Shown one piece after another: positions 1,898 through 44,446 of a stretch of DNA of 44,446 bases. Under the pieces are notes generated by a model, which did no database searches, had not been told where the DNA came from, and saw only the letters and a program-made list of their open reading frames with translations. The first letter of the stretch is position 1; each line of letters starts with the position of its first letter. The DNA comes from Escherichia phage vB_EcoM_SHAK7704: sequence record OR594181; one strand, 5' to 3'. A program made the translations under genes and the position numbers.

Positions 1898-1915
1898 ATT
1901 TACTGGACACTATAG
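1898..1915 (+). promoter_or_regulatory. Phage RNAP promoter ATTTACTGGACACTATAG
   Basis: 18-mer matching the consensus repeated across the window; immediately after the terminase stop. Confidence 0.7.
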
Positions 1916-1991
1916 GAGGAAGACCAAGAGAATAAAGGAATATTATAGGATAATATAGGATTACCTATGTTATATAGGTACACCTTATTAT

Positions 1992-2020
1992 GAGGGTACT
2001 CCTGTACCCTCTTCTTATCT
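1992..2020 (+). terminator. Promoter-proximal hairpin GAGGGTAC-tcct-GTACCCTC followed by T-rich run
   Basis: Perfect 8-bp stem, then ttcttatct; about 80 nt downstream of the promoter +1 and upstream of the 2054 ORF. Confidence 0.4.
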
Positions 2021-2053
2021 ACTTCATTATTTACTAGAAACAAGGAGTATAGA

Positions 2054-2335
2054 ATGGCTAATAATTATAGTGATCAACCACTAACAGGTCGATATGATCG
2101 AAAGCAGGAGACACCTGTAAGTGAAGCGTTAATGCTCCCTGTTGTTACAGAGGAGTCTATTAAGAAGAAAGCCAATGTTATCAATGATGCAACCAAATCT
2201 GGTAAACAGAAAGCATCAATGGTGTGTCGTCCTGTAGGTGGCACTCTTGAGATTGCCATTGCTACTGGCAGCAGAGAGGATGCAGATTGGTTGTCTGTTA
2301 AAATGGATGGCGTTGGTCTTATTACACCGGCTTAA
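2054..2335 (+). CDS. Hypothetical protein, paralog A of a three-gene family
   Basis: 93 aa; AAGGAG RBS; shares an INxxxxSGKQ...IAxGS..D.W domain with the next two ORFs. Confidence 0.6.
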   Translation: MANNYSDQPLTGRYDRKQETPVSEALMLPVVTEESIKKKANVINDATKSGKQKASMVCRPVGGTLEIAIATGSREDADWLSVKMDGVGLITPA

Positions 2336-2351
2336 TAAAGGAGAAGATAAT

Positions 2352-2636
2352 ATGTCTAAGTATGGCGATGCAGGTACTACTGGTCAGGCTTTTCGTGTAA
2401 AAGCAGTACAAACTATTGCAACTGCAATCCCTATGCCTATCGTGGCAGAAGCTGACCTTAAAAAGAAAGATCATCCAATTAATATTGAACACCTATCTGG
2501 TAAGCAGAAAGGTGCTATGGTGGTTGTAGATAAAGGAGATAATAGCCTTTATATTGCTATTGCACGTGGTTCTGCACCAACTGACCAGTGGGATGTAACT
2601 ACTATGGAAGCTGTACCTGTAACACCAGGAGCTTAA
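2352..2636 (+). CDS. Hypothetical protein, paralog B
   Basis: 94 aa from ATG 2352 with AAGGAG RBS; same conserved domain as paralogs A and C. Confidence 0.6.
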   Translation: MSKYGDAGTTGQAFRVKAVQTIATAIPMPIVAEADLKKKDHPINIEHLSGKQKGAMVVVDKGDNSLYIAIARGSAPTDQWDVTTMEAVPVTPGA

Positions 2637-2637
2637 T

Positions 2638-3327
2638 ATGCTGGGAGTAACAGGACAACGCAATAAGAATGTAGCCACCAAAGTGGTGGCTGATTTAGCT
2701 ACTGCTGCTACTGTCGAGGAATTACGAAACCAACATAGCTCTATTAACCGTGCTGACCTTTCTGGTAAACAAGAAGGTTCCGCCGTTATTATTAAGAAAG
2801 AAGATGGGAATTATTCTATCTTTGTAGCAACAGGAAGCAAGCCGACTGATGTGTGGAAAGAGTTGTCTCCAACAATACCAGAGCAAGAGATGCCTGCTGA
2901 ATATATTGATATGATTGATGTTCAAATTCATCAAGATTCTGCAAGCAACTTACATATAGACTCTTCTCGCACTAGTTTAATACAAACACCAATGTGGGAT
3001 ACTGAAGGTGAGTTGTTATTCCGTAATACACTAAGTGCAACATGTTCTTGTACTATTCTTGTTGATGGTGCGTCTGGTGTTCGTCAGGATTTTACTTTTA
3101 AGATTAATGGACTTTTAGAGCAGGAAGAGCAGTATTATGATATTGACACACTTATGTGCTCTATTCACTCTGCAACAACAACTAATGGCCTTACCTTGTG
3201 TATGCCAGATGCTAAAAGTGCAAAGACTAATAAAGTGGTAGTTAAGATCGACACTATGCAGTCATTAGCTATGAGCTTTGATCTTAACTTCCTTGTAGAA
3301 TGGACGTCACCAACGAGGTTACTATAA
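2638..3327 (+). CDS. Hypothetical protein, paralog C (family domain plus ~140-aa C-terminal extension)
   Basis: 229 aa; N-terminal domain homologous to A and B; stop overlaps the endolysin start (TAATG). Confidence 0.6.
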   Translation: MLGVTGQRNKNVATKVVADLATAATVEELRNQHSSINRADLSGKQEGSAVIIKKEDGNYSIFVATGSKPTDVWKELSPTIPEQEMPAEYIDMIDVQIHQDSASNLHIDSSRTSLIQTPMWDTEGELLFRNTLSATCSCTILVDGASGVRQDFTFKINGLLEQEEQYYDIDTLMCSIHSATTTNGLTLCMPDAKSAKTNKVVVKIDTMQSLAMSFDLNFLVEWTSPTRLL

Positions 3328-3671
3328 TGCTAAATCAATACTTCAAGCGTAAAGAATTTGCTTGCCGTTGTGGGTGCGGTACATCCACTGTTGATGCTGA
3401 GTTACTACAGGTAGTAACAGATGTGCGTGAGCACTTTGGTACTCCTGTTGTTATCACTTCTGGTCATCGCTGCGCCAAGCACAATGCTAATGTAGGTGGA
3501 GCTAAGAACTCTATGCATCTTACTGGTAAGGCTGCTGACATTAAGGTACGAGGCATCTTACCTTCTGATGTACATAAGTACCTTACTGATAAGTACCAAG
3601 GCAAGTATGGTATTGGTAAATATACCTCCTTTACTCATATTGATGTACGTGACGGGTGTGCACGATGGTAG
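3327..3671 (+). CDS. Endolysin, zinc peptidase M15-like fold
   Basis: 114 aa from ATG 3327 (ORF track starts at 3300 but has no RBS); SGHRC...H...D...H motif; sits beside the spanins. Confidence 0.7.
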   Translation: MLNQYFKRKEFACRCGCGTSTVDAELLQVVTDVREHFGTPVVITSGHRCAKHNANVGGAKNSMHLTGKAADIKVRGILPSDVHKYLTDKYQGKYGIGKYTSFTHIDVRDGCARW

Positions 3672-3779
3672 GTTGTGTTGCATGGTGTGAACGCATGGTT
3701 GCTAAGGCTTCAGAGGAAGGCAACTATGAAGATTGGCAGAACTACTCAACTTTATTAGCTCAATGGAAAGGGAGATGCA

Positions 3780-3929
3780 ATGAAAAAGCTGTTCAAATCT
3801 AAGAAGGTTGTAGGTGCACTAGTTGCATTGGCAATTGCTCTTGTTTCTGTAGGTCTTGGTGTAGACCTTGGCTCTGGCACGGAATCCTCTGTGACAGATG
3901 TGGTCTGCCAAGTGATCACCTGTGAATAA
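3780..3929 (+). CDS. Small hydrophobic peptide (49 aa), possible lysis regulator
   Basis: Not in the ORF track (under 60 aa); AAGGGAG RBS 9 nt upstream; MKKLFKSKKVVGALVALAIALVSVGLGV hydrophobic segment. Confidence 0.4.
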   Translation: MKKLFKSKKVVGALVALAIALVSVGLGVDLGSGTESSVTDVVCQVITCE

Positions 3930-4143
3930 GTTTCTAGAAGTGCTGGCAGGTCTTATTGGCCTGCTTGTCTCTGCTAAGAAGAAACAAGAAGAGAAGGAGG
4001 CACAAAGTGAAGCGAATCATGCTAGCGACAACCCTGCTGATTGGTTCGCTGATCATTTCAGGGTGTCAGACGGCGTTACCAGAGAATCCAAAGGTGAAGC
4101 CTCTGAAGCCGACGCTTACGGCAGTCTACGAGGTGGACGATAA
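3922..4143 (+). CDS. i-spanin (Rz-like), candidate
   Basis: 73 aa, GTG start; N-terminal transmembrane segment FLEVLAGLIGLLVSA then charged domain; overlaps the o-spanin ORF. Confidence 0.45.
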   Translation: MNKFLEVLAGLIGLLVSAKKKQEEKEAQSEANHASDNPADWFADHFRVSDGVTRESKGEASEADAYGSLRGGR

Positions 4144-4216
4144 AGTCTGCTTCAGTAAGCCTGACGCTACAAAATTAGGTCTGTACATTCTCTCGCTAGA
4201 ACGCGGGTATAATTAA
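4007..4216 (+). CDS. o-spanin (Rz1-like outer-membrane lipoprotein)
   Basis: GTG 4007 with GGAGG 6 nt upstream (alternative ATG 4019); signal peptide with lipobox IISGC; proline-rich mature part; +1 frame over the i-spanin. Confidence 0.6.
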   Translation: MKRIMLATTLLIGSLIISGCQTALPENPKVKPLKPTLTAVYEVDDKVCFSKPDATKLGLYILSLERGYN

Positions 4217-4245
4217 TACATAGTTTTATGTATCAGTGTCTTACG

Positions 4246-4263
4246 ATTTACTGGACACTATAG
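4246..4263 (+). promoter_or_regulatory. Phage RNAP promoter ATTTACTGGACACTATAG
   Basis: Exact consensus 18-mer upstream of the tailspike genes. Confidence 0.7.
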
Positions 4264-4347
4264 AAGAGATAAGATAGTGCCGTTCTTTTGAGCGGCCTAT
4301 TACTAGCCAATCTTCATAGGGAGGATTGGGAAGTAATAGGAGAGTAT

Positions 4348-4683
4348 ATGGCTAAGTTAACTAAACCCAAGACAACTGGCTTACTACATAGAGATACTGT
4401 ACTAGCTACATTATTGGATAATTTACTATCTAAAAGGCGTGTTACATTTGAAGGTGTAGTTCCAAGTGAAGATACTAAAATTGAGATAGAAGTACCTGCA
4501 ACAGGAGATTTAGATTCTTCGTGGGCATCACTTGTATCATTAAGTACACCTACACTTTGTACAGCTTGGATTACTAAAGTGTCAGATACTAGATTAGAAG
4601 TACATGTGTTCCATACAGCACAAGTTGAAATAGACATAGATGTAGATGTTTACATTCTAGGTAAACACATTGTCAGTGCGTAA
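4348..4683 (+). CDS. Short tailspike-like protein (111 aa) in the second-tailspike position
   Basis: ATG 4348 with GGGAGG/AGGAG RBS; sits directly upstream of the endosialidase, where K1-5-type phages carry a second tailspike. Confidence 0.5.
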   Translation: MAKLTKPKTTGLLHRDTVLATLLDNLLSKRRVTFEGVVPSEDTKIEIEVPATGDLDSSWASLVSLSTPTLCTAWITKVSDTRLEVHVFHTAQVEIDIDVDVYILGKHIVSA

Positions 4684-4750
4684 GCACTGCTTTTCGCGCA
4701 ACTTTTCTTAAAGGTTATCATGATGGTAGCCTTTCAGAAAAGGAGGTTAC

Positions 4751-7186: not shown

Positions 7187-7397
7187 GCAAGCGGCTGTAC
7201 GCCAGAACACAGAAGAACTTATTCAATCAGGACGTGACCATAAGCAGGCTTATGCCATTGCTAAGGATGTACAACGTCGTGCCGGATTTCCCCCATATGG
7301 GGGCCGCGCTGCGGTTGGCTTGGGAATTGGGCTAGGCTGGGCCGTCTTCGACGGGTGGCCTAGAGCTTGCCGAGGTCTGCTCTTAGTGGCTGCACAA

Positions 7398-7531
7398 GGA
7401 GAACGCCTAGGAAGCGCTAGGGCACGCCTTAGTATTGGACAAGGTGATTGCCTTAGTGCAACCGCTTAGGGCTTACACAGGCCGTTTTAGGGCCATTCCT
7501 GAGCGTTTGACAAGGTGGGCGTGGGTGGGCT
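7398..7531 (+). repeat. Direct repeat copy 1 (134 bp), putative right terminal repeat
   Basis: Identical base-for-base to 7532-7665 in direct tandem. Confidence 0.7.
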
Positions 7532-7665
7532 GGAGAACGCCTAGGAAGCGCTAGGGCACGCCTTAGTATTGGACAAGGTGATTGCCTTAGTGCAACCGCT
7601 TAGGGCTTACACAGGCCGTTTTAGGGCCATTCCTGAGCGTTTGACAAGGTGGGCGTGGGTGGGCT
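7532..7665 (+). repeat. Direct repeat copy 2 (134 bp), putative left terminal repeat
   Basis: Identical to 7398-7531; followed at 7666 by ATCTGTT. Confidence 0.7.
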
Positions 7666-7716
7666 ATCTGTTCGTTTCGTTCACTCCGCTTGCGCTCCGT
7701 TCACTCGCTCACGTGT

Positions 7717-8027: not shown

Positions 8028-8043
8028 TGTGACATGTATCACA
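8028..8043 (+). promoter_or_regulatory. CRP-like site TGTGA-N6-TCACA
   Basis: tgtgacatgtatcaca matches both CRP half-sites; centred about 72 bp upstream of the predicted early start site. Confidence 0.3.
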
Positions 8044-10218: not shown

Positions 10219-10324
10219 AGATGGAAAGGCAATATAACTTTATCTTCTCAGACGGTGTAACCCTGAAATGTTCCTTACGATTTGCGCAGATTCGTGAGGA
10301 AGTACTAGGAACTACATACAAGCT

Positions 10325-10342
10325 ATTTAGCTGACACTATAA
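10325..10342 (+). promoter_or_regulatory. Variant phage promoter ATTTAGCTGACACTATAA (SP6-like upstream half)
   Basis: Matches the SP6 consensus ATTTAGGTGACACTATAG except G to C at one position and A in place of the +1 G. Confidence 0.4.
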
Positions 10343-10638: not shown

Positions 10639-10702
10639 CTAGCCTATAGCCTACCTGTGTGGGCTATGTGATATTTACTTACCACTATATAAGGTGACTA
10701 TT

Positions 10703-11650: not shown

Positions 11651-14278
11651 ATGCAAGACCTACACGCTATTCAACTTCAACTTGAAGAAGAAATGTTTAA
11701 CGGCGGTATCCGTCGCTTTGAAGCGGACCAACAACGCCAGATTGCATCCGGTAATGAATCAGACACGGCATGGAATCGCCGTTTATTGTCCGAGTTAATC
11801 GCGCCAATGGCTGAAGGTATTCAGGCATACAAGGAAGAGTATGAAGGTAAAAGAGGCCGTGCACCGCGTGCATTAGCTTTCATTAACTGCGTAGAAAACG
11901 AAGTGGCAGCATATATCACGATGAAAATCGTTATGGATATGCTGAATACAGACGTTACCTTACAAGCAATCGCTATGAATGTAGCGGACCGCATCGAAGA
12001 CCAAGTACGTTTTAGCAAGCTGGAAGGTCACGCAGCTAAGTACTTTGAGAAAGTGAAGAAGTCGCTTAAGGCTAGCAAGACTAAATCTTATCGTCATGCG
12101 CACAACGTAGCGGTAGTAGCTGAGAAATCTGTTGCTGACCGTGACGCGGATTTCTCCCGTTGGGAGGCATGGCCTAAAGATACCTTGCTACAAATCGGTA
12201 TAACCTTGCTAGAAATACTGGAAAATAGTGTATTCTTCAATGGTCAGCCTGTCTTTCTTCGCACCTTGCGCACTAATGGTGGCAAGCATGGCGTTTACTA
12301 CTTACAGACCAGTGAACACGTAGGGGAATGGATTACAGCATTTAAAGAACATGTAGCGCAACTTAGCCCGGCTTATGCACCTTGCGTTATACCTCCGCGT
12401 CCGTGGGTTTCTCCTTTTAATGGCGGTTTTCACACTGAGAAGGTAGCAAGTCGTGTGCGTCTTGTTAAAGGCAGCCGTGAACACGTCCGCAAGCTGACCA
12501 AAAAGCAAATGCCAGCGGTTTACAAGGCTGTTAACGCTTTGCAGGCGACTAAATGGCAGGTTAACAAGGAAGTTTTACAGGTTGTTGAGGACGTAATACG
12601 GCTTGATTTAGGCTATGGCGTACCTTCCTTCAAACCACTCATCGACCGCGAGAACAAGCCAGCTAATCCGGTGCCGTTAGAGTTCCAGCACCTGCGAGGC
12701 CGTGAACTGAAAGAAATGTTAACACCGGAACAATGGCAAGCCTTCATCAACTGGAAAGGTGAATGCACCAAGCTGTATACCGCTGAGACTAAGCGCGGCA
12801 GCAAATCGGCGGCGACCGTCCGCATGGTAGGGCAGGCCCGTAAATACAGCCGATTTGACGCAATATACTTCGTGTATGCTCTGGACAGCCGCAGCCGCGT
12901 CTACGCGCAATCTAGCACGCTCTCTCCACAATCAAACGACTTAGGCAAGGCATTGCTCCGTTTTACCGAAGGGCAGCGTCTTGATAGCGCTGAGGCGCTT
13001 AAGTGGTTTTTGGTGAACGGGGCTAATAACTGGGGTTGGGATAAGAAAACTTTTGACGTGCGCACCGCTAACGTGCTGGATAGTGAATTTCAAGACATGT
13101 GCCGCGACATTGCAGCGGATCCGCTGACCTTCACTCAATGGGTAAATGCCGACTCCCCTTACGGCTTCCTTGCATGGTGCTTTGAATATGCGCGTTATCT
13201 GGATGCACTGGATGAAGGCACGCAAGACCAATTCATGACGCACCTCCCAGTCCATCAAGATGGTAGTTGTTCTGGTATCCAGCACTACAGTGCTATGCTA
13301 CGCGATGCAGTAGGTGCGAAAGCGGTAAACCTTAAGCCCTCTGACTCACCTCAAGATATTTATGGTGCCGTTGCGCAGGTAGTAATTCAGAAGAATTATG
13401 CATACATGAATGCAGAGGATGCGGAAACCTTCACTTCTGGCAGCGTGACTTTAACAGGTGCAGAACTTCGTAGCATGGCTAGTGCGTGGGATATGATAGG
13501 AATCACTCGCGGCCTGACCAAAAAGCCTGTAATGACACTACCTTATGGCAGCACACGTCTAACCTGCCGTGAATCAGTGATTGATTATATCGTTGATTTG
13601 GAAGAAAAAGAGGCCCAACGGGCTATTGCGGAAGGGCGTACCGCCAATCCTGTACATCCTTTTGATAATGACCGCAAAGACAGCCTGACACCTAGCGCAG
13701 CTTATAACTATATGACAGCTTTAATCTGGCCTTCTATTTCGGAAGTGGTTAAAGCTCCTATAGTGGCAATGAAAATGATTCGTCAGCTTGCACGTTTCGC
13801 AGCTAAAAGAAACGAAGGCTTAGAATATCCCTTACCAACTGGCTTCATCTTGCAACAAAAGATAATGGCTACCGATATGCTCCGCGTATCCACTTGCTTG
13901 ATGGGTGAAATCAAGATGAGTCTCCAGATTGAAACAGATGTAGTTGATGAAACGGCAATGATGGGTGCGGCTGCCCCTAACTTCGTCCATGGTCACGATG
14001 CTAGCCACCTGATTCTGACTGTATGTGACCTAGTGGATAAAGGTATTACATCCATTGCAGTCATCCATGATTCTTTCGGTACTCATGCAGGACGTACCGC
14101 AGACCTGCGGGATAGCTTAAGGGAAGAAATGGTTAAGATGTATCAAAACCATAATGCCCTGCAAAACCTGCTAGATGTGCACGAAGAGCGTTGGTTAGTA
14201 GACACCGGAATCCAAGTACCAGAGCAAGGAGAGTTTGACCTTAACGAAATCTTAGTTTCAGACTATTGTTTCGCATAA
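11651..14278 (+). CDS. Single-subunit DNA-dependent RNA polymerase (T7 gene 1-like)
   Basis: 875 aa; C-terminus ...DYCFA like T7 RNAP ...FAFA; preceded by early genes. Confidence 0.95.
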
Positions 14279-14286
14279 TATTAATA

Positions 14287-14318
14287 GGCCATTCCTTAGG
14301 GAGTGGCCTTTTTCTTTA
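14287..14318 (+). terminator. Intrinsic terminator after the RNAP gene
   Basis: GGCCATTCC-ttag-GGAGTGGCC stem followed by TTTTTCTTT. Confidence 0.65.
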
Positions 14319-14351
14319 CCTACTACCTGTAACATTTCATTAACATAAAGT

Positions 14352-14367
14352 GTCTCACATGTGAGAC
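14352..14367 (+). repeat. 16-bp perfect palindrome GTCTCACATGTGAGAC (copy a)
   Basis: Directly upstream of the promoter at 14370. Confidence 0.8.
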
Positions 14368-14369
14368 TT

Positions 14370-14387
14370 ATTTACCGGACACTATAG
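14370..14387 (+). promoter_or_regulatory. Phage RNAP promoter ATTTACCGGACACTATAG
   Basis: Consensus with one substitution (C at position 7). Confidence 0.65.
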
Positions 14388-14543: not shown

Positions 14544-14559
14544 TCTCACATGTGAGACT
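14544..14559 (+). repeat. 16-bp palindrome GTCTCACATGTGAGAC (copy b)
   Basis: Directly upstream of the promoter at 14564. Confidence 0.8.
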
Positions 14560-14563: not shown

Positions 14564-14581
14564 ATTTACCGGACAGTATAG
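14564..14581 (+). promoter_or_regulatory. Phage RNAP promoter variant ATTTACCGGACAGTATAG
   Basis: Two substitutions from consensus; precedes the 14612 ORF. Confidence 0.5.
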
Positions 14582-14962: not shown

Positions 14963-16950
14963 TGGCTATTATTAATAACATCCCGTGCCCTGCCTGCCAG
15001 AAGAATGGACACGATAAATCCGGCAATCATCTCATGATATTTGATGATGGTGCTGGCTATTGTAACCGTGGTCATTTCCACGATAACGGCAAGCCTTACT
15101 ATCATAAGCCAGAAGGTGGCATCGAGATCACCGAGTTGCCTATTACTGGCAATATCAAATATACACCTTCTCAATTCAAAGAGATGGAGAAGGAAGGGAA
15201 GATAAGCGACCCTAAGTTACGCGCCATCGCACTTGGTGGTATGCGTATGAAAGACCGATGGGAGGTCATGAATGAGCAAGAAAGGGCAGACCAAGAAGCA
15301 GAGTGGAAACTTGATGTTGAATGGTTCCTCACGCTTAAGCGTAAGAATCTTGTTTCCCGACACATTCGCGGCGACATTTGCGCATTGTATGATGTACGTG
15401 TCGGACACGATGAAGATGGTAGAGTCTCACGGCATTACTATCCACGCTTCGAGAAAGGTGAGCTAGTAGGCGCTAAGTGTCGCACATTACCTAAAGACTT
15501 TAAGTTTGGTCATTTAGGTAAACTCTTTGGTATGCAAGATCTTTTCGGTATGAATACTTTGTCTCACGTGTTAGACAAGGGAAGACGAAAGGATTGCTTG
15601 CTTATTGTAGGTGGTGAACTTGATGCACTAGCAGCACAGCAAATGCTCCTTGATTCTGCCAAGGGTACTAAGTGGGAAGGCCAGCCTTACCATGTATGGT
15701 CTGTCAATAAAGGTGAGTCTTGCCTTGAAGAGATAGTACAGAACCGTGAACACATCGCCCAATTTAAGAAGATTATATGGGGTTTTGATGGCGACGAGGT
15801 GGGGCAGAAGCAGAATCAGCAAGCGGCTCGCCTGTTTCCTGGCAAATCCTATATCCTTGAATACCCTTCTGGTTGCAAAGATGCTAACAAGGCATTGATG
15901 GCTGGCAAGGCTAAAGAGTTTGTTGATGCTTGGTTTAATGCCAAGTCATCTGATGAAGTCTTTGGTAGCCAGATTAAATCTATCGCATCTCAAAGGGATA
16001 AGCTCAAGGCTGCACGTCCAGAGCAAGGACTATCATGGCCTTGGCCTAAGCTGAACAAGGTAACGCTAGGTATTCGTAAGAACCAGCTTATCATTGTAGG
16101 TGCAGGTTCTGGTGTAGGTAAGACTGAGTTCCTCCGCGAAGTGGTTAAACATCTCATTGAAGAACACGGTGAATCTGTAGGCATCATTTCTACAGAAGAC
16201 CCAATGGTCAAGGTGTCCCGTGCTTTTATCGGCAAGTGGATTGATAAGCGTATTGAGTTACCGCCAACCAACGACCCGAAAGAAGACGGATACCGTGAGG
16301 TGTTCGACTACACCGAGGAAGAAGCTAACGCTGCCATTGATTATGTAGCTGATACAGGAAAGCTATTTGTGGCTGACCTAGAAGGCGATTATTCTATGGA
16401 GAAGGTAGAGCAAACTTGCCTAGAGTTTGAGGCTATGGGCATTTCTAATATCATCATTGATAACTTAACGGGGATTAAATTAGATGAGCGTGCTTTTGGT
16501 GGGAAGGTTGGTGCACTTGATGAATGCGTCAAACGAATTGGTACTATCAAAGACCGACATGCGGTTACGATTTTCCTTGTCTCTCACCTTACACGTCCTC
16601 CGGCAAACCGTACCCAACACGAAGAAGGTGGCGAAGTTATCCTTTCTGACTTCCGAGGCTCAGGCGCTATCGGATTCTGGGCATCTTACGCCTTGGGGAT
16701 TGAGCGTAATACAAGAGCTGAAACGCTTGATGAAAGGACTACCACGTACATCTCGTGTGTCAAAGACCGCGATCAAGGTATCTACACTGGAACCAAGGTC
16801 ATGCTTAAAGGTGACATTCAGACCGGACGTTTGATGGAACCACAAGCCCGTACTAAGTCATTTGATACAGGTGAAGCAAGGCAGCAAGAGGTGCCTGATT
16901 TACCGGACACTATAGAAGAGACAAACTTTGAAGATGAACAGGAGTTTTAA
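14962..16950 (+). CDS. DNA primase/helicase (T7 gp4-like)
   Basis: 662 aa; N-terminal Cys4 zinc motif CPAC...C..GH; Walker A GAGSGVGKT; acidic C-terminus ending in Phe (EDEQEF). Confidence 0.9.
   Translation: MAIINNIPCPACQKNGHDKSGNHLMIFDDGAGYCNRGHFHDNGKPYYHKPEGGIEITELPITGNIKYTPSQFKEMEKEGKISDPKLRAIALGGMRMKDRWEVMNEQERADQEAEWKLDVEWFLTLKRKNLVSRHIRGDICALYDVRVGHDEDGRVSRHYYPRFEKGELVGAKCRTLPKDFKFGHLGKLFGMQDLFGMNTLSHVLDKGRRKDCLLIVGGELDALAAQQMLLDSAKGTKWEGQPYHVWSVNKGESCLEEIVQNREHIAQFKKIIWGFDGDEVGQKQNQQAARLFPGKSYILEYPSGCKDANKALMAGKAKEFVDAWFNAKSSDEVFGSQIKSIASQRDKLKAARPEQGLSWPWPKLNKVTLGIRKNQLIIVGAGSGVGKTEFLREVVKHLIEEHGESVGIISTEDPMVKVSRAFIGKWIDKRIELPPTNDPKEDGYREVFDYTEEEANAAIDYVADTGKLFVADLEGDYSMEKVEQTCLEFEAMGISNIIIDNLTGIKLDERAFGGKVGALDECVKRIGTIKDRHAVTIFLVSHLTRPPANRTQHEEGGEVILSDFRGSGAIGFWASYALGIERNTRAETLDERTTTYISCVKDRDQGIYTGTKVMLKGDIQTGRLMEPQARTKSFDTGEARQQEVPDLPDTIEETNFEDEQEF
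16898..16915 (+). promoter_or_regulatory. Phage RNAP promoter ATTTACCGGACACTATAG inside the primase/helicase 3' end
   Basis: 18-mer lies in coding sequence and encodes ...PDTIEE... Confidence 0.6.
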
Positions 16951-17124: not shown

Positions 17125-17148
17125 GCTTGTCTCACATGTGAGACAGGC
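17125..17148 (+). terminator. Palindrome-family hairpin with T-rich tail (copy c)
   Basis: GCTTGTCTCACATGTGAGACAGGC followed by tcttatt. Confidence 0.45.
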
Positions 17149-17183: not shown

Positions 17184-17867
17184 ATGTATAAATTAGTATT
17201 GAATGCAGGTGATTATGTTCGTAACATCAATGCAACCTCACGTAGATATCGTTGCCGTGGTACTGTGACTAATGTAAGTGAAAACAGCTACTATGTAGAG
17301 TACAGTAATGGTATTAGACAGGCTTATCAAAAGGAATCAGCACATAACTACCTTGAGAAGATTGGAGAGGTAAGCAATCAATGTAAGTGCGTACACGATG
17401 AGATTTGCGATAAGTGTGCCCGCCAGATGCATAAAATGCTATTATACCCTCTTCGCTATGGTGCTGGCATTCAAACCTTAGCAGAGGCATATGGCAAAGG
17501 TAAGACTACACTTAATAAAGATCGCCGCAATGTAATCACTGGTAAGACTCAAAGTGAAATGATTAAGCAATGTGGCACTGCACTAGGTGTTACGCAGTTT
17601 AACACTCGTGCTCTTGGTAAATCCACAGGACAAGCTATGGTGAAGATTGGTGAAGCCATGATGCACCCAAATGTACCTGTGCGAATCATGGATGTTGACC
17701 ATGCAATCACAGAACACGGTACACCACGACGTGTAGCTAATAAGCATTTTGCCGACACTATAGAAGTTATTATCCGTAAGCAAGGGTTGAAAGGTCTTCA
17801 CCTCTTGAATGGTGAAGAATTACTGTATCTCCCTATTGTTACTGAAGAAACCTACGTGAATATTTAA
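17184..17867 (+). CDS. Hypothetical protein with Cys cluster
   Basis: 227 aa; GGAG RBS before ATG 17184; CKCVHDEICDKC cluster; contains promoter-like 18-mer at 17746-17763. Confidence 0.6.
   Translation: MYKLVLNAGDYVRNINATSRRYRCRGTVTNVSENSYYVEYSNGIRQAYQKESAHNYLEKIGEVSNQCKCVHDEICDKCARQMHKMLLYPLRYGAGIQTLAEAYGKGKTTLNKDRRNVITGKTQSEMIKQCGTALGVTQFNTRALGKSTGQAMVKIGEAMMHPNVPVRIMDVDHAITEHGTPRRVANKHFADTIEVIIRKQGLKGLHLLNGEELLYLPIVTEETYVNI
17746..17763 (+). promoter_or_regulatory. Variant phage promoter ATTTTGCCGACACTATAG, intragenic
   Basis: Conserved GACACTATAG core with a divergent upstream half; encodes ...ADTIEV... Confidence 0.35.
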
Positions 17868-18298: not shown

Positions 18299-18322
18299 GG
18301 TTGTCTCACACGTGAGACAGCC
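18299..18322 (+). terminator. Palindrome-family hairpin (CACGTG core variant) with T-rich tail (copy d)
   Basis: GGTTGTCTCACACGTGAGACAGCC followed by tttcatc. Confidence 0.45.
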
Positions 18323-21318: not shown

Positions 21319-21336
21319 ATTTACTGGACACTATAG
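21319..21336 (+). promoter_or_regulatory. Phage RNAP promoter ATTTACTGGACACTATAG
   Basis: Exact consensus. Confidence 0.7.
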
Positions 21337-21789: not shown

Positions 21790-22089
21790 ATGATGGAAGA
21801 AGTGATTCAAGCTAAACATGTAGGTATCATCTTTCGTGATCTAGAGCAGCGTAAAGTTGCAGGTCACACTCGTCTGGCTAAAGAAGACGATACAGCAATC
21901 ACTACTGTGGAACAAGCAGATGCCTATCGTGGTCCAGAGTTTACTCAAGGTGAAACTTGTCATCAATTGAGCCTTTCACTTTGTGACACTATGGCTAGTG
22001 TAAATGTACAAGAGGTTGAAGATGGTGAATGTGTTAGTTATGTCTACCCTCTCGATACTATTGCACGTATTAAGGTAGTTCATAAGTAA
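21790..22089 (+). CDS. Hypothetical protein
   Basis: 99 aa. Confidence 0.55.
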   Translation: MMEEVIQAKHVGIIFRDLEQRKVAGHTRLAKEDDTAITTVEQADAYRGPEFTQGETCHQLSLSLCDTMASVNVQEVEDGECVSYVYPLDTIARIKVVHK

Positions 22090-22104
22090 TTACTGGACAC
22101 TATA
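22087..22104 (+). promoter_or_regulatory. Phage RNAP promoter AATTACTGGACACTATAG
   Basis: Consensus with one upstream substitution. Confidence 0.65.
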
Positions 22105-22166
22105 GAACAATAGGTCGGCTTAGTTCGGCCTATGATTGTGTAGTGTAACAATAGGAGACTAAATAA

Positions 22167-23202: not shown

Positions 23203-23218
23203 GTCTCACGTGTGAGAC
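23203..23218 (+). repeat. 16-bp palindrome GTCTCACGTGTGAGAC (copy e)
   Basis: Perfect palindrome; directly upstream of the promoter at 23234. Confidence 0.8.
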
Positions 23219-23233: not shown

Positions 23234-23251
23234 ATTTACTGGACACTATAG
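23234..23251 (+). promoter_or_regulatory. Phage RNAP promoter ATTTACTGGACACTATAG
   Basis: Exact consensus. Confidence 0.7.
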
Positions 23252-25407: not shown

Positions 25408-26407
25408 GCTTCGCAGCTTGTACAAAGACTCCGAGGTACTTGATGCAATCGAGCAAGCTACCGACGAGAAAGGTAATGTTAACTACAACGAGATGGCACG
25501 GGTATTATCGTGTCACCCTGTGGGTAAGAAGATTACCCGCCAGTTGGCTCGATACTGGCATGGTCAATTCAAGAAGACCAAGAAGAATGGTGATTACTAC
25601 CAGACTCTTCTGCAAGAGGATAAGCGTATCAAAGAAGAGCGTAAGCTCAGGACTCCTGACCGCTACGAGGATTTGGCTATTGTACCACTGCCTGACTCGC
25701 CTCATCGAAGTGTACTGGTAATCCCTGACACTCATGCACCTTACGAGCACCCAGATACCTTAGAGTTCCTTGCAGCAGTGGCAGCACGTTACCGTCCTGA
25801 TACGGTGGTTCATCTTGGAGATGAGGCAGACAAACATGCCTTATCGTTCCACGATTCGGACCCAAATCTGGACAGTGCTGGCATGGAATTAGAGAAGGCT
25901 CGTGTCTTCATGCACAAGTTGCACAAGATGTTTCCTGTGATGCGCCTGTGTCATTCTAATCACGGCTCTATGCACTTCCGTAAGGCAAGCGCCAAGGGTA
26001 TTCCAGTGCAATATCTTCGTACATACCGTGAAGTCTTCTTCCCAAATGGAGGTGGCGACCAGTGGGATTGGCAACATACACACGTACTTGAGTTGCCGAA
26101 TGGTGAACAGGTAGCATTCAAGCATCAACCTGCTGGCTCTGTCTTAGCAGATGCAGCGCATGAGCGTATGAACCTTGTGTGTGGTCACTTGCATGGTAAG
26201 ATGTCTGTGGAGTACGCACGTAATACACATGAACAGTATTGGGCTGTGCAGGGCGGCTGTTTGATTGATGAGTCATCTCGTGCATTTGCCTATGGTCGTG
26301 AGTCCAAATACAAGCCAGCATTAGGTTGTGTGGTTATTCTGGAGGGTGTGCCGCACATTGTCCCGATGCAGACCAATAGTGACAATCGCTGGATTGGTAA
26401 GATTTAG
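25373..26407 (+). CDS. Calcineurin-like metallophosphoesterase
   Basis: Motifs PDTH, GDEADKH, SNHG, GHLHG; start uncertain (ATG 25373, or TTG 25400 with AGGAGG 6 nt upstream; track 25367). Confidence 0.65.
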   Translation: MQERRRRLKLGKLRSLYKDSEVLDAIEQATDEKGNVNYNEMARVLSCHPVGKKITRQLARYWHGQFKKTKKNGDYYQTLLQEDKRIKEERKLRTPDRYEDLAIVPLPDSPHRSVLVIPDTHAPYEHPDTLEFLAAVAARYRPDTVVHLGDEADKHALSFHDSDPNLDSAGMELEKARVFMHKLHKMFPVMRLCHSNHGSMHFRKASAKGIPVQYLRTYREVFFPNGGGDQWDWQHTHVLELPNGEQVAFKHQPAGSVLADAAHERMNLVCGHLHGKMSVEYARNTHEQYWAVQGGCLIDESSRAFAYGRESKYKPALGCVVILEGVPHIVPMQTNSDNRWIGKI

Positions 26408-26419
26408 TTGACACTATAG
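26402..26419 (+). promoter_or_regulatory. Variant phage promoter ATTTAGTTGACACTATAG (SP6-like)
   Basis: One mismatch from the SP6 consensus; overlaps the phosphoesterase TAG stop. Confidence 0.55.
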
Positions 26420-31482: not shown

Positions 31483-31500
31483 ATTTACTGGACACTATAG
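31483..31500 (+). promoter_or_regulatory. Phage RNAP promoter ATTTACTGGACACTATAG (capsid gene)
   Basis: Exact consensus; transcript begins with hairpin GGGAGA-aatg-TCTCCC. Confidence 0.75.
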
Positions 31501-39625: not shown

Positions 39626-39638
39626 TACCTAACTCAAG

Positions 39639-39662
39639 GCTTGTCTCACATGTGAGACAGGT
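39639..39662 (+). terminator. Palindrome-family hairpin with T-rich tail (copy f)
   Basis: GGCTTGTCTCACATGTGAGACAGG followed by tctttat. Confidence 0.45.
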
Positions 39663-39689
39663 CTTTATGATAGGCACTATGGAGGAATT

Positions 39690-42600
39690 ATGGAACAAGA
39701 CATTAAGACTAATTGGGCTGGATATGTCCAGTCTACTCCTGAGCCGTTTTCTATTGAGGCGGCTCCGGTATCGGCTCCTACGATACGCCAGCGTAATGAG
39801 TTACAAGAGCAAGTTCTTGAAGCTAAAGCTGACGCTGATATTTTAGGTGCTGTAGGTGCTGCCTTCCAGAATGAGTGGTTGGCATTCGGAGGCAAGCGGT
39901 GGTATGACCGTGCCACTGCTGATTTCACACCTCAACCAGACTTTGAGATACAACCTGAGCAACGTGAAGCACTACGTTTCAAATATGGTACGGATATGAT
40001 GCAGACAATCACTGAGGGTGTTCGTTCTGAGGATGAATTGAACTTCCGTATTCAGAATGCTGATGAAGACCTTGAGCGCAATAAGCGCATTGCTCAGGCT
40101 GGCTGGGTTGGCTCTGTGGCGACGATTGGCGCTGCTGTGCTTGACCCTGTGGGATGGGTTGCCTCTATTCCAACCGGTGGTGCCGCTAAAGTTGGACTCG
40201 TAGGACGTGCTGTGCGTGGCGCTATCGCCGCTGGCGTGAGTAATGCCGCTATTGAATCCGTATTGGTCCAAGGTGACATGACTCGTGATTTAGATGACAT
40301 TATGGTAGCACTAGGTTCCGGTATGGCGATGGGTGGCGTTATTGGCGCTGTAGCGCGTGGTAGGGCCACTAAGCTCAGTGAGCAAGGGGATGACAGGGCT
40401 GCGAGCATTGTGCGCAGTGCAGACGCAGGGGACCGCTATGTGCGTGCTGTTGCTGATGATAGTATCGGTGCGATGCGTGTTAAGGGTGAAGAGGTACTCA
40501 CGGAGGGTGCATTTGATGTCTCTAGCAAAGGTGAAGATTTGCTGAAAACCCTACAGCGGGAAGGTAATGCAATTGATATGACCCCTCGCCGCTGGGCCGG
40601 AACTCTGTCTGCCCTTGGTACTGTCGTACATTCCTCTCAGGATGCAAGTGTACGCGGCCTTGGTGCTCGCCTGTTTGAGTCCCCCCAAGGCTTAGGTATG
40701 CAGAAGGCATCTGCTAGTCTCATGCAGAATACTAACTTGAACCGTCTGAAATCTGCTGATATGAATCGTTTCAACGATGGGTTCGATTTATGGCTCAAAG
40801 AGAATAATATCAACCCGGTTGCAGGTCATACTAACTCTCACTATGTGCAGCAATATAATGAGAAGGTATGGGAAGCTGTACGCATCGGTATGGACGAGTC
40901 TACGCCTAAGTCTATCCGTATGGCAGCAGAGGGGCAGCAAGCTATGTATCGTGAAGCATTAGCATTACGTCAACGCTCTGGTGAAGCTGGGTTTGAAAAG
41001 GTTAAAGCAGATGATAAGTACATGCCTGATATTTTTGACAGTATGAAGGCTCGTCGTCAATTCAGTATGCACGATAAAGAGGACATCATTGAGTTATTCT
41101 CTCGTGCATACCAGAATGGTTCTCGTAAGGTTCCAAAGGAAGTGGCTGATGATATTGCACGAGCACAAGTAAACCGCGTTGCTGATGCCACCTTGACCGG
41201 ACAGCTTAGCTTTGAAAAGGCTATGTCTGGTCAAACCAAAGCAGAATATGAAGCACTCATGCGCAAAGCAGGCTTTAGTGATGAAGAGATTGAAAAGATG
41301 GTAGAAGCTCTGGATAATAAAGAAACCAGAGATAATATCTCTAACCGAGCTAAGATGAGTTTAGGCTTAGATGTTACTCAAGAGTACAATGGTATTCGTA
41401 TGCGTGACTTTATGAACACTAACGTGGAAGAGTTAACAGATAACTACATGAAGGAAGCGGCAGGTGGTGCTGCCTTGGCTCGTCAAGGTTTCTCTACCTA
41501 TCAGGCTGCACTTAATGCAATTGATCTTGTAGAGCGAAATGCACGAAATGCAGCTAAAGATACAAAAGCACACGCACAATTTGAAGCGGAGTCGGCTAAG
41601 ATCCGTCAATCAGAGCCTGATTACAAGAAGGCACAAGAGAAGATTGAAGAGTTAAAGAAGCGACTTAAATTGAAAGAGAAAGATGAAGCAGCAGGTCTGG
41701 CTATTGATGAAGAAATCCGTCAGATGCGAGAGGGGCTTCGCTTGATTATGGGTAAATCTATCGATTCAAACCCACAAGATTTGTCTACTAAAATGCTGCG
41801 TCGTGGGCGTGACATTACAGGCGTACTTCGCTTAGGTCAGATGGGCTTCGCACAGCTAGGTGAACTTGCTAACTTCATGGGTGAGTTTGGTATTGCTGCC
41901 ACCACTATGGCTTTAGGTAAGCAATTCCGCTTCACCTCTAAGGCGTTGCGTAATGGCGATGGCTTCTTTCGAGATAAGAATTTAGCTGAGGTTGAGCGAA
42001 TGGTAGGTTACATTGGTGAAGACAACTGGCTAACAACTAAGGGTGCGCGTCCAGATGAGTTTGGTGATGTAACCACAGTGCGAGGTATGATGGCCCATTT
42101 TGACCAGTCCATGAACTCTATACGACGTGCTCAGACAAACCTATCCCTCTTCCGCATGGCACAGGGTTCTCTGGAGCGAATGACCAATAGGCAAATAGCT
42201 TTGTCTTTCATTGACCACCTTGAAGGCAAGAAGATTATCCCTCAGAAGAAACTGGAGGAACTTGGTCTTACTCAGGAGTTCATGACTAACCTACAGAAGC
42301 ACTATGATGCTAACTCTAAAGGTTCTGGCTTGCTTGGCTTTGATACAATGCCTTATGCCATGGGTGAAACTTTAGCTAATGCTATTCGTCGTAAGTCAGG
42401 TCTAATTATCCAACGTAACTTCATTGGTGATGAAGGTATCTGGATGAACAAAGCACTAGGTAAGACATTTGCACAGCTTAAGTCATTCTCTCTTGTATCT
42501 GGTGAGAAGCAATTTGGTCGAGGGATTCGACACGATAAAATTGGTCTTGCTAAGAAGACAGCTTACGGGTTTGCTTTGGGTTCAATAGTGTATGCGGCAA

Positions 42601-42998
42601 AAGCCTATGTGAACTCTATTGGGAGAGAAGACCAAGATGAATATTTGGAAGAGAAGTTATCGCCTAAAGGGTTGGCCTTTGGTGCAATGGGTATGATGAG
42701 TACAACTGCTGTATTTAGTCTAGGTGGAGATTTCTTAGGTGGCCTAGGTGTTCTACCTTCTGAGTTAGTACAATCCCGTTATGAGGCTGGCTTTCAGACT
42801 AAGGGTTTGATAGACCAAATACCACTAGTAGGTGTTGGTCAAGATGCATATCGTTTAGCAGATTCTATAACTAAATATGCAGAGGGTGATACAGAAGGTG
42901 TAGATGTGGCACGTAGGGCTTTACGCTTAGTGCCTCTAACTAATGTAATAGGAATCCAGAACGCATTGCGTTATGGCTTAGATGAACTGGAGGATTGA
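39690..42998 (+). CDS. Large internal virion (ejection) protein (gp16-like)
   Basis: 1102 aa; largest structural gene before the tail adaptor. Confidence 0.75.
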   Translation: MEQDIKTNWAGYVQSTPEPFSIEAAPVSAPTIRQRNELQEQVLEAKADADILGAVGAAFQNEWLAFGGKRWYDRATADFTPQPDFEIQPEQREALRFKYGTDMMQTITEGVRSEDELNFRIQNADEDLERNKRIAQAGWVGSVATIGAAVLDPVGWVASIPTGGAAKVGLVGRAVRGAIAAGVSNAAIESVLVQGDMTRDLDDIMVALGSGMAMGGVIGAVARGRATKLSEQGDDRAASIVRSADAGDRYVRAVADDSIGAMRVKGEEVLTEGAFDVSSKGEDLLKTLQREGNAIDMTPRRWAGTLSALGTVVHSSQDASVRGLGARLFESPQGLGMQKASASLMQNTNLNRLKSADMNRFNDGFDLWLKENNINPVAGHTNSHYVQQYNEKVWEAVRIGMDESTPKSIRMAAEGQQAMYREALALRQRSGEAGFEKVKADDKYMPDIFDSMKARRQFSMHDKEDIIELFSRAYQNGSRKVPKEVADDIARAQVNRVADATLTGQLSFEKAMSGQTKAEYEALMRKAGFSDEEIEKMVEALDNKETRDNISNRAKMSLGLDVTQEYNGIRMRDFMNTNVEELTDNYMKEAAGGAALARQGFSTYQAALNAIDLVERNARNAAKDTKAHAQFEAESAKIRQSEPDYKKAQEKIEELKKRLKLKEKDEAAGLAIDEEIRQMREGLRLIMGKSIDSNPQDLSTKMLRRGRDITGVLRLGQMGFAQLGELANFMGEFGIAATTMALGKQFRFTSKALRNGDGFFRDKNLAEVERMVGYIGEDNWLTTKGARPDEFGDVTTVRGMMAHFDQSMNSIRRAQTNLSLFRMAQGSLERMTNRQIALSFIDHLEGKKIIPQKKLEELGLTQEFMTNLQKHYDANSKGSGLLGFDTMPYAMGETLANAIRRKSGLIIQRNFIGDEGIWMNKALGKTFAQLKSFSLVSGEKQFGRGIRHDKIGLAKKTAYGFALGSIVYAAKAYVNSIGREDQDEYLEEKLSPKGLAFGAMGMMSTTAVFSLGGDFLGGLGVLPSELVQSRYEAGFQTKGLIDQIPLVGVGQDAYRLADSITKYAEGDTEGVDVARRALRLVPLTNVIGIQNALRYGLDELED

Positions 42999-43960
42999 TG
43001 AGTTATACTTTCACAGAACATATAGCCAACGGTACGCAAGTAACCTATCCCTTTAGATTTGCTGGCAGGGATAAAGGCTATCTTCGTGCCTCAGATGTGA
43101 TAGTGGAATCTCTTCAAGGTAACACTTGGATTGAGGTTACATCTGGCTGGCAATTAACTGGTACGCATCAAATCACTTTTGATGTAGCACCTGTTGCAGG
43201 TTTGAAGTTCCGTATTCGAAGGGAAGTACAAAAGGAGTATCCATACGCTGAGTTTGACCGTGGTGTTACCTTGGATATGAAGTCTTTAAATGGTTCTTTC
43301 ATTCATATACTGGAGATTACACAGGAGTTACTTGATGGGTTTTATCCAGAAGGATACTTCATTAAGCAGAATGTAAGCTGGGGCGGCAATAAGATTACTG
43401 ACCTAGCTGATGGTGAGAATCCAAAAGATGCAGTAAATAAATCACAGCTAGATGCTATCGACAAGAAGCATACTGATTGGAACTCTGCACAAGATATAGA
43501 GATTGCTGGTATTAAGAGAGGAATGGTGTCTGGTGTATCTCATCGCACTATTCCTTGGTATATGGTCGCCTCCGGTGGAGAGCAAATCATTCGACCACCT
43601 TACTCATTTGATGATGCTATGGTGTTTATAAACGGTGTATTCCAGCATGAACTAGCAGGTGCAGTATCAGTGGGGTATAATGTTATAACCCTGTCCGAGC
43701 CATTACAGGCTGGGGATGAAGTTTATGTGCTTATAGGTAGTCGCTTAACCCCACCTACAAGTGCGGATACTATCCTCTTTACACAAGCAGTGAGTGAAGG
43801 TACACAATCTATCGACATTGTAACGGCTTTCCAACGTCTTGATGTATACTTGGATGGCCTGTATCAACCTAATAATGCTTATGAAATCGTAGGGTCTACT
43901 ATCACTTTCAGTGAGCCATTACCTGAGTGTGTCGTAAGTATGAAGCTACAACTAGTGTAA
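42998..43960 (+). CDS. Tailspike adaptor protein (T7 gp17 N-terminal-domain-like)
   Basis: 320 aa; ATG 42998 overlapping the upstream TGA; position before holin as in SP6-like phages. Confidence 0.7.
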   Translation: MSYTFTEHIANGTQVTYPFRFAGRDKGYLRASDVIVESLQGNTWIEVTSGWQLTGTHQITFDVAPVAGLKFRIRREVQKEYPYAEFDRGVTLDMKSLNGSFIHILEITQELLDGFYPEGYFIKQNVSWGGNKITDLADGENPKDAVNKSQLDAIDKKHTDWNSAQDIEIAGIKRGMVSGVSHRTIPWYMVASGGEQIIRPPYSFDDAMVFINGVFQHELAGAVSVGYNVITLSEPLQAGDEVYVLIGSRLTPPTSADTILFTQAVSEGTQSIDIVTAFQRLDVYLDGLYQPNNAYEIVGSTITFSEPLPECVVSMKLQLV

Positions 43961-43969
43961 GGAGGTGAG

Positions 43970-44164
43970 ATGATTAACTCCGAACTGGTAGATAGTGGTG
44001 TGAAGCTTGCGCCACCTGCATTAGTCTCAGGTGGGTACTTCCTCGGTATCAGTTGGGATAATTGGGTGTTAATAGCAACATTCATTTATACCGTGTTGCA
44101 AATTGGAGACTGGTTTTATACCAAGATTAAACTATGGAGGAAGAATCGTGAGCGTCCACAATAA
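43970..44164 (+). CDS. Holin (T7 gp17.5-like, class II)
   Basis: 64 aa; WDNWVLIATFIYTVLQIG resembles T7 gp17.5 LNEWFYVAAIAYTVVQIG as recalled; AAGGAGG RBS. Confidence 0.75.
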   Translation: MINSELVDSGVKLAPPALVSGGYFLGISWDNWVLIATFIYTVLQIGDWFYTKIKLWRKNRERPQ

Positions 44165-44446
44165 ACATGCAGCTACAGAAGATGAGGTTGGCATCCTGCA
44201 TGGTGCTATTACCAAAATCTTTAATAAGAAAGCACAGGCAATACTGGACACTATAGAAGAAGACCCAGATGCAGCACTGCATTTAGTCTCTGGTAAAGAT
44301 ATTGGAGCTATGTGTAAGTGGGTTCTTGATAATGGTATTACCGCTACACCTGCTGCACAGCAGGAGGAGTCCAAGCTATCTAAGCGCCTCAAGGCTATCC
44401 GAGAGGCATCAAGTGGCAAGATTATTCAATTCACTAAGGAGGATTG
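44148..44446 (+). CDS. Terminase small subunit (3' end wraps to position 1)
   Basis: GTG 44148 with GGAGG 7 nt upstream; ORF runs to the window end; last two bases tg plus first base a make a TGA stop overlapping the terminase ATG. Confidence 0.65.
   Translation, partial: MSVHNKHAATEDEVGILHGAITKIFNKKAQAILDTIEEDPDAALHLVSGKDIGAMCKWVLDNGITATPAAQQEESKLSKRLKAIREASSGKIIQFTKED
44259..44276 (+). promoter_or_regulatory. Phage RNAP promoter variant CAATACTGGACACTATAG, intragenic
   Basis: Conserved -12 to +1 region; encodes ...LDTIEE... of the small terminase. Confidence 0.5.

Follow-up and report, generated by a model that had tools for sequence, protein, structure and literature searches.

The complete sequence of Escherichia phage vB_EcoM_SHAK7704 (record OR594181), a stretch of 44,446 bases referred to below as the window, encodes a single-subunit RNA polymerase of the T7 family and carries 13 predicted promoters for this enzyme, three of which depart from the consensus at positions -12 to -10. 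Here we report a comparative analysis of these promoters, of the polymerase specificity loop, and of the gene boundaries at which the three variant sites are located. Set against K1E and K1-5, the window proves to be an entire Vectrevirus (K1E/K1-5-like coliphage) genome in circularly permuted form, with one copy of the terminal repeat; its first 20 kb are 94-95% identical to Vectrevirus phages (relatives of K1E and K1-5), with >90% of the length covered. The genome ends of K1E and K1-5 correspond to ~7270-7560 of the window, where the single repeat copy is also found, and position 1 of the permuted assembly falls within the large terminase gene. All large open reading frames (ORFs) are on the + strand.

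The comparison set comprised 20 K1E-type and 11 SP6-type genomes or IMG/VR contigs, collected with the polymerase and gp22 as probes. Each promoter is described as an 18-mer that spans positions -17 to +1, its last base being +1. The weight matrix used for scoring the window was trained on the non-variant sites of the other genomes only, and both strands were scanned.

Thirteen predicted promoters of the phage RNA polymerase

Exactly 13 promoter-like 18-mers stand above background in the window, all of them on the + strand and co-directional with the genes. They comprise seven exact consensus sites, three near matches, and three variants, as follows.

1898..1915, + strand: consensus promoter directly 3' of the large terminase gene
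4246..4263, + strand: consensus promoter ahead of the gp46/endosialidase tailspike module
10325..10342, + strand: variant promoter ATTTAGCTGACACTATAA, with A at +1, 5' of gp5-gp6-RNA polymerase; first phage promoter from the physical left end
14370..14387, + strand: consensus promoter ATTTACCGGACACTATAG, first of a tandem pair, 3' of the RNA polymerase gene and terminator; 10/11 orthologs identical
14564..14581, + strand: promoter ATTTACCGGACAGTATAG with G at -5 (one mismatch), second of the tandem pair, ahead of gp8
16898..16915, + strand: consensus promoter within the 3' end of the primase/helicase gene gp9, where the frame reads ...P-D-L-P-D-T-I-E-E...; 11/14 orthologs identical
17746..17763, + strand: variant promoter-like site ATTTTGCCGACACTATAG within gp10; the least certain of the 13
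21319..21336, + strand: consensus promoter ahead of gp15; 13/13 orthologs identical
22088..22105, + strand: promoter AATTACTGGACACTATAG with A at -16 (one mismatch), ahead of gp16
23234..23251, + strand: consensus promoter ahead of gp18; 15/15 orthologs identical
26402..26419, + strand: variant promoter ATTTAGTTGACACTATAG, where the phosphoesterase gene gp22 ends, ahead of gp23
31483..31500, + strand: consensus promoter ahead of gp31 (major capsid gene), with a 5' hairpin after it
44239..44256, + strand: promoter-like site CAATACTGGACACTATAG (CAATAC...) within the small terminase gene gp39, frame A-I-L-D-T-I-E-E; three mismatches; kept in K1-5, K1E, and R4596

The consensus ATTTACYGGACACTATAG occurs exactly at seven positions (1898, 4246, 14370, 16898, 21319, 23234, and 31483), with 0 occurrences expected from shuffled sequences, and 11 sites lie within three mismatches of it against 0.05 expected; two further variants were recovered by a search with the core only. 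The 13 best weight matrix matches in the window are the same 13 sites, scoring from 33.7 down to 11.9 bits, and the next match scores 7.5 bits. Maxima in shuffled sequences averaged 4.5 bits (sd 3.7, maximum 17.2), a range that includes the two lowest-scoring sites, 10325 (14.0 bits) and 17746 (11.9 bits), so that the case for both rests on orthologous conservation and not on score. Thirteen phage promoters had been claimed in a sequence-only reading of this DNA, and the match counts and the matrix ranking bear out that number; the "eight to nine" consensus sites of that reading are in fact seven exact matches, or nine sites within one mismatch.

Ten of the sites follow the genus consensus ATTTAC(C/T)GGACACTATAG and have C at -12 together with G at -10, two positions at which 10325 (G, T), 17746 (G, C), and 26402 (G, T) differ. 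The core GACACTATAG, which extends through +1, is exact in 11/13 sites, the exceptions being 14564 (G at -5) and 10325 (A at +1), and the AT-rich element ATTTA at -17 to -13 is exact in 10/13 (one mismatch in 22088 and in 17746, three in 44239). A pyrimidine at -11, which is a K1E-type feature, is present in all 13. In K1-5, K1E, and R4596, counterparts of all 13 sites lie at the corresponding gene boundaries, and the three variants have the same sequences there; the sites also recur in IMG/VR relatives. The three sites located inside genes (16898, 17746, and 44239) all read GAC ACT ATA GAA, that is, D-T-I-E. By these features the 13 sites are predicted promoters of a phage single-subunit RNA polymerase of the T7 family, SP6/K1E subgroup.

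Promoters of the K1-5/K1E type, these variants included, have been described before in this group of phages. A metagenomic K1E-type polymerase, No. 2049, was characterised by Godel et al. 2026 (PMC13029058), and the supplementary promoter list for its phage includes TATTTAGCTGACACTATAAGAGAA, CATTTTGCCGACACTATAGAAGAC, and GCAATACTGGACACTATAG. The phages K1-5, K1E, and No. 2049 share with the window the consensus, the number and order of sites, and the three variants at the same gene boundaries, with strain-level differences only. For instance, 3' of the terminase gene the window has ATTTAC and not AATTAC, and at the gp22 end ATTTAGGT in the No. 2049 phage stands in place of ATTTAGTT. Some of the departures coincide with stop codons of upstream genes: the A at -16 of 22088 is part of the TAA stop of ORF 21790..22089, a layout also found in SP6 and R4596, and the K1-5 and K1E counterparts of 1898 likewise have A at -16 from an overlapping TAA stop. 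The G at -5 of 14564 is found in 12/12 K1E-type orthologs. No promoter features are annotated in the GenBank records of K1-5, K1E, and SP6, and literature searches for Vectrevirus transcription data returned nothing useful.

Two further candidates were considered as a 14th site and rejected. The first, 10673-10690 (ATTTACTTACCACTATAT), has 14/18 consensus matches but scores 6.0 bits, not above shuffled sequences, and drifts in close relatives (ATTTACTTAACACTATAT, ATTTACTTATCATTATAC, and others); its neighbours are a conserved hairpin (10645-10668) on one side and the gp6 start on the other, and it appears to illustrate what a decayed or chance site looks like, unlike the three conserved variants. 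The second, 21977-21994 (CACTTTGTGACACTATGG), is not among the 22 best listed matrix matches, lacks the AT-rich upstream part, and has G at -1. It lies ~110 nt 5' of promoter 22088 within ORF 21790-22089, and has a conserved counterpart in K1E and a nearly conserved one in K1-5.

Polymerase specificity loop and promoter position -11

The polymerase and the features associated with it are located as follows.

11651..14278, + strand: single-subunit RNA polymerase gene (E = 6e-112 to T7 RNA polymerase structures)
13835..13939, + strand: specificity loop of 35 residues, in which Ser747 (codon 13889-13891) is aligned with T7 Asn748; SP6-type enzymes have Arg
14286..14319, + strand: strong hairpin resembling an intrinsic terminator, with a T run, 8 nt 3' of the RNA polymerase stop codon

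The window polymerase shows 98.5-99.2% identity to its counterparts in K1-5 and K1E, and 85% to the SP6 polymerase. Its loop aligns to T7 without a gap, HMMER and MAFFT being in agreement, and the T7 residues R746/N748/R756/Q758 correspond to R/S/K/S in the window phage and to R/R/K/S in SP6. Serine at the position of T7 Asn748 was found in 13/13 K1E-type sequences (the window and 12 loci that yielded the loop); its place is taken by Arg in the SP6-, PM85-, ZK1-, and L020-type enzymes and by Lys in that of L022.

SP6 (promoter ATTTAGGTGACACTATAG) and the window share the -9 to +1 core, the AT-rich part at -17 to -13, and the promoter positions along the genome. Only position -11 separates K1E-type from SP6-type promoters cleanly, with C or T in 155/157 K1E-type sites and G in 53/53 SP6-type sites. 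Position -12 is C in 111/112 non-variant K1E-type sites and is mixed in SP6-type sites (G 39, A 10, T 4), and position -10 is G in 106/112 of the former and T 37, G 14, A 1, C 1 in the latter. The polymerase residue and the promoter base at -11 thus covary, Ser with C/T and Arg with G: SP6-type promoters have an invariant G at -11 and an Arg enzyme, whereas all 13 window sites have C or T and the window enzyme has Ser. The three variants share in this, with C, C, and T at -11 in 10325, 17746, and 26402, respectively, so that neither they nor the Ser747 polymerase have the SP6-type pairing.

A comparable relation is familiar from T7 and T3, where the change of Asn748 to Asp alters the preference at -10/-11 (cited in PMC11880802). 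Both in T7/T3 and in K1E/SP6, one residue at the same loop position covaries with the -11 base between sister groups; the K1E/SP6 pair is Arg/Ser, unlike that of T7/T3, and the published in vitro result described below suggests that the Ser enzyme is permissive, not switched. K1E and SP6 have been placed in separate specificity clusters, outside the rules of other T7-like enzymes (PMC11880802).

The choice between C and T at -11 follows the order of the sites from the physical left end. The first five (10325, 14370, 14564, 16898, and 17746) have C and the last eight (21319, 22088, 23234, 26402, 31483, 44239, 1898, and 4246) have T. The same split is seen in K1-5 and R4596, with one exception in K1E and one in the published No. 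2049 phage (G at the gp22-end site). Chance would produce a perfect split with a probability of 1 in 1287 for a linear order, or ~1 in 100 for a circular one.

The three variant sites

Two of the variants overlap the 3' ends of genes with the following coordinates.

10221..10334, + strand: gp4, a 37-aa ORF whose protein is conserved in K1-5, K1E, R4596, SP6, IME184, and L020
25400..26407, + strand: gp22 phosphoesterase, whose TAG stop forms positions -14 to -12 of 26402

The overlap of the deviating bases with stop codons and codons of upstream genes, missed in the earlier reading, is found at all three sites. At 10325, positions -10 to -8 (TGA) are the stop of gp4, which a consensus G at -10 would abolish, and at 26402 a consensus C in place of the last base of the TAG stop would give TAC (Tyr). 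At 17746, the gp10 frame reads H-F-A-D-T-I-E across the site with the Phe and Ala codons at -15 to -10, and the differences among relatives (TTT/TTC, GCC/GCA) are synonymous. Site 10325 also ends in TATAA instead of TATAG, having A at +1, a feature that had gone unremarked.

The variant 18-mers are islands of invariance amid variable flanks, and within the genus they vary no more than the consensus promoters do. Site 26402 has the same sequence in 16/16 K1E-type genomes, with 0/18 variable columns against 13/30 upstream and 16/30 downstream; 10325 is identical in 13/15, the other forms being ATTTAGTT... and ATTTATCT...; and 17746 is identical in 8/14, the others differing only at -17, -13, -11, or -10. 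The sites of the first two kinds also change with the lineage. Upstream of the polymerase gene, five lineages have a site with their own core and a TATAA-GA ending, as listed here.

K1E-type: ATTTAGCTGACACTATAA
SP6-type: A(A/G/T)TTATGTGACACTATAA
L020: AATTATGTAGCACTATAA
L022: AATAAAGGCGGACTATAA
ZK1-type: TAAT(A/T)GTGGCGAGTATAA

Such a site was not found in the PM85-type phages. At the gp22 end, every lineage sampled has a promoter with a lineage-specific core. Since the cores at these two positions track the lineage, coding constraint cannot account for the covariation, and 10325 and 26402 would be real promoters.

The description of the three sites as having an SP6-like upstream half holds in part. 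Mismatches to the SP6 and K1E consensus number 1 and 2, respectively, for 26402, and 2 and 3 for 10325, and all three variants score higher on the SP6-type matrix; site 17746, however, is equidistant (3 and 3), and the base at -11 is K1E-type in all. By their bases the variants are hybrids, SP6-like at -12 and -10 and with a K1E-type pyrimidine at -11. In SP6 itself, the counterparts of the three variant sites are also off the SP6 consensus.

One polymerase for all 13 sites and the alternatives

The explanation that we favour, with a probability of about 0.8, is that one RNA polymerase reads all 13 sites, and that the three variants are conserved off-consensus promoters shaped by gene overlap and by the tolerance of the polymerase, without a second specificity class. 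According to this proposal, a single T7-family polymerase with Ser at the equivalent of T7 Asn748 would use the ten consensus sites as full-strength promoters and the three variants as old, position-specific, off-consensus promoters with G at -12, T or C at -10, and a pyrimidine at -11. Their departure from the consensus would be imposed in part by the overlapped 3' ends of upstream genes (the gp4 TGA, the gp22 TAG, and the gp10 Phe/Ala codons), and what remains would be tolerated by a polymerase that, judging from published in vitro data on a near-identical enzyme, discriminates little at -12 to -10.

These data concern polymerase No. 2049, which is 96% identical to the window polymerase over the C-terminal 432 residues. 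Its in vitro signal, expressed as a percentage of that of T7, was 3.5% on an SP6-type promoter, about 2% on its own consensus, and 0.18% on a PM85-type promoter (PMC13029058). As the SP6-type promoter was used at least as well, a K1E-type enzyme does not discriminate against the SP6-type bases at -12 to -10. The earlier proposal of two promoter specificities set by these positions is not supported, in view of this result and of the -11 base, which is K1E-type in each of the variants.

The arrangement recalls that of T7, where one polymerase serves identical strong (class III) promoters and off-consensus (class II) promoters in the early and DNA-metabolism region, and where phi2.5 is a natural promoter that starts with A. 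The three variants are likewise located in the early and DNA-metabolism part of the genome, one of them with a non-G start. From their off-consensus sequence, their location, and the conservation of their deviations, it is plausible that the variants are weak or differently tuned, and they would probably fire at reduced or tuned strength, like the T7 class II promoters.

Several observations weigh against the single-polymerase explanation. The loop of No. 2049 has Gly where the window has Ser757 (the position of T7 Gln758), and the promoters compared in PMC13029058 differ at one transcribed base. The likeness to SP6 is not merely superficial, the variants scoring 26.5, 20.4, and 17.2 bits on the SP6-type matrix against 20.4, 12.0, and 10.3 bits on the K1E-type matrix. 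The T at -10 of 26402 is outside the gp22 ORF, so coding overlap is no explanation for it, and SP6-type phages mostly have TAA at the gp22 end (A at -12), though TAG would make a perfect consensus; the stop-codon constraint is, therefore, not the whole story. Finally, the counterpart of 17746 is missing in the relative L016, and a similar sequence is present in L020, a lineage with a different promoter core, so that 17746 may be conserved for coding reasons only.

An alternative explanation, which we regard as unlikely, holds that the variants are leftovers of an SP6-like specificity, or a second class of SP6-type promoters, from an ancestral polymerase that read GGT at -12 to -10; the sequence-only reading had similarly spoken of relics of a specificity change. 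G at -12 and T at -10 are indeed the SP6 consensus bases, the variants score higher on the SP6-type matrix, and the confinement of Ser at the T7 Asn748 position to the K1E-type clade, with Arg or Lys elsewhere, makes the K1E specificity look derived; the overlap with coding sequence could then have frozen the three sites. However, the sole fully separating position, -11, has the K1E-type base at each of the three sites, which are also invariant throughout the genus and show no decay. In vitro, moreover, SP6-type and K1E-type promoters serve a K1E-type polymerase about equally well, which leaves no separate specificity of which the sites could be relics. The SP6-type orthologs have T (polymerase-upstream site), C (gp10), and A (gp22 end) at -12, and PM85 also has A at the gp22 end, which indicates that G at -12 was derived within the K1E lineage and not inherited. 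On this comparison with the SP6-, PM85-, and L020-type orthologs, the term relic was rejected for the G at -12.

An equally improbable explanation is that some or all of the variants are non-promoter look-alikes kept by the coding sequence only. It is best suited to 17746, which lies wholly within gp10, has a score of 11.9 bits within the range of shuffle maxima, and, besides being absent from L016, is matched in L020 gp10 by an SP6-type look-alike, TATTACGTGACACTATAG, in a phage whose own promoters are TTGCACTATAG. Such look-alikes do exist: a (T)TAGGTGACACTATAG-like sequence inside gp35, the gene of an internal virion protein, has been retained in SP6, IME184, and R4596 and, almost unchanged, in PM85, whose own core is different. 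Its positions are as follows.

L007:29625, L003:29393, L004:24242, L005:30240: look-alike inside gp35

This gp35 sequence is best read as a coding-driven look-alike, and it warns against calling each core match a promoter. Against the same explanation for the variants stand the bases outside the upstream ORF, 12/18 in 26402 and 8/18 in 10325, which are still invariant or nearly so, and the cores of 10325 and 26402, which change with the promoter type of the lineage. Even in gp10, the codons GAC ACT ATA GAA have no synonymous change in 13 distinct K1E-type sequences, whereas neighbouring codons do change.

Recent import of the variants, together with flanking genes, by recombination with SP6-type phages is very improbable and was rejected: such swaps occur, as in contig L013 (an SP6 promoter and Klebsiella-phage flanks beside a K1E-type polymerase), and the No. 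2049 phage has ATTTAGGTGACACTATAG at its gp22 end, but the three window sites sit in K1E-type flanks common to the whole genus, the SP6-type G at -11 is in none of the three, and they have 2-4 differences from their SP6-type orthologs.

A possible feedback promoter of the polymerase gene

Within the favoured single-polymerase explanation, site 10325 has a distinct position, ~3 kb from the left end and 5' of gp5, gp6, the polymerase gene, and the strong terminator at 14286-14309. The hairpin at 14286, at the place of which a terminator is annotated in R4596, likely marks the end of an early transcription unit fed by 10325. Being located upstream of the polymerase gene, 10325 would feed back positively on polymerase synthesis, and its A at +1 may damp this feedback. 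The conserved site contradicts the published statement that K1E has no phage promoter upstream of its polymerase gene (PMC4099482).

A broader and more tentative proposal, to which we give somewhat less than even odds, is that the SP6-like phages (Molineuxvirinae) have a conserved natural autogene, with a TATAA promoter bearing the lineage's own core 5' of gp5-gp6-polymerase and a damped feedback, and that Vectrevirus promoters fall into two classes by the -11 base, a counterpart of T7 classes II and III. The C/T split at -11 may accordingly mark two classes of strength or timing. The polymerase-upstream TATAA site overlaps the gp4 stop in three of the five lineages (K1E, SP6, and L020), and under the autogene proposal the TATAA promoter would have followed the polymerase through at least five changes of the promoter core. 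T7 is not known to have a phage promoter ahead of the gene for its polymerase, and we know of no homolog in the window phage of T7 lysozyme, which is known to shift promoter use.

The discovery value of the promoter set as such is small. K1-5/K1E-type promoters are established and in use in expression systems, the K1E RNA polymerase with the K1E capsid promoter driving expression in human cells (PMC6412113), and the variants are on a published list. What the comparison adds is a way of interpreting phage promoters that stray from the consensus: they can reflect a trade-off with the stop codons that they overlap and can be conserved elements with a tuned output, so that neither decay nor a second specificity need be invoked. 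Co-evolution of polymerase and promoter is seen in compact, natural form in the pairing of the Ser/Arg residue with the -11 base. This pairing and the A-start promoter, which by its conserved place 5' of the polymerase gene may serve as a built-in feedback element, may help engineers of orthogonal SP6/K1E pairs and students of the timing of T7-family transcription.

Tandem promoters, module exchange, and RNA structures

The second tandem promoter after the polymerase gene (14564; L003:6287, L021:6801, L006:6542, L020:12895) is a fixed deviant in every lineage, with the sequences GACAGTATAG in K1E-type, CACTATTG in SP6-type (TATTG), GACCAGTATAG in PM85-type, and GGCTAGTATAG in ZK1-type phages and TTGCCCTATAG in L020. 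The interval 3' of 14370 contains a purine- and AT-rich run, and this run and the tandem promoters recall the primary replication origin of T7 at phi1.1A/1.1B.

The contig L013 (IMGVR_UViG_3300029310_000051) has a perfect SP6 promoter, ATTTAGGTGACACTATAG, at L013:2709-2726 ahead of the tailspike gene despite a K1E-type polymerase with the Ser loop. The site is the counterpart of window 4246, and its downstream flank is identical to that of Klebsiella SP6-type phages; the tailspike module was swapped in along with a foreign promoter. The same flank is found in L029 (L029:2197; compare L004:34365) behind a K1E-type promoter, and the flanks of L029 and L013 suggest that the promoter itself was the recombination joint.

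The 14-bp palindrome TCTCAC(A/G)(T/C)GTGAGA, usually flanked to give GTCTCAC..GTGAGAC, is present in six exact copies, or eight within one mismatch, against 0.02 expected, as listed here.

14353-14366, 14544-14557, 17130-17143, 18304-18317, 23204-23217, 39644-39657: palindrome copies, intergenic
7991, 15562: near-copies, intergenic

Three of them are located shortly 5' of the promoters 14370, 14564, and 23234. The palindromes are at the same places in K1-5, K1E, and R4596 and were not found in SP6, IME184, PM85, and ZK1; possible roles are those of hairpin terminators or pause sites, or of a site bound by a dimeric protein.

In the first 60 nt of the predicted transcripts from 10325, 21319, 22088, 26402, 31483, and 4246, folding predicts stable hairpins close to the 5' end. 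The stem has 9 bp for 10325 and 10 bp for 26402, with 60-nt folds of -19.1 and -15.1 kcal/mol, respectively, and the R4596 counterpart of the hairpin after 26402 is annotated there as a terminator. By analogy with T7, these 5' hairpins may be processing or stabilising elements.

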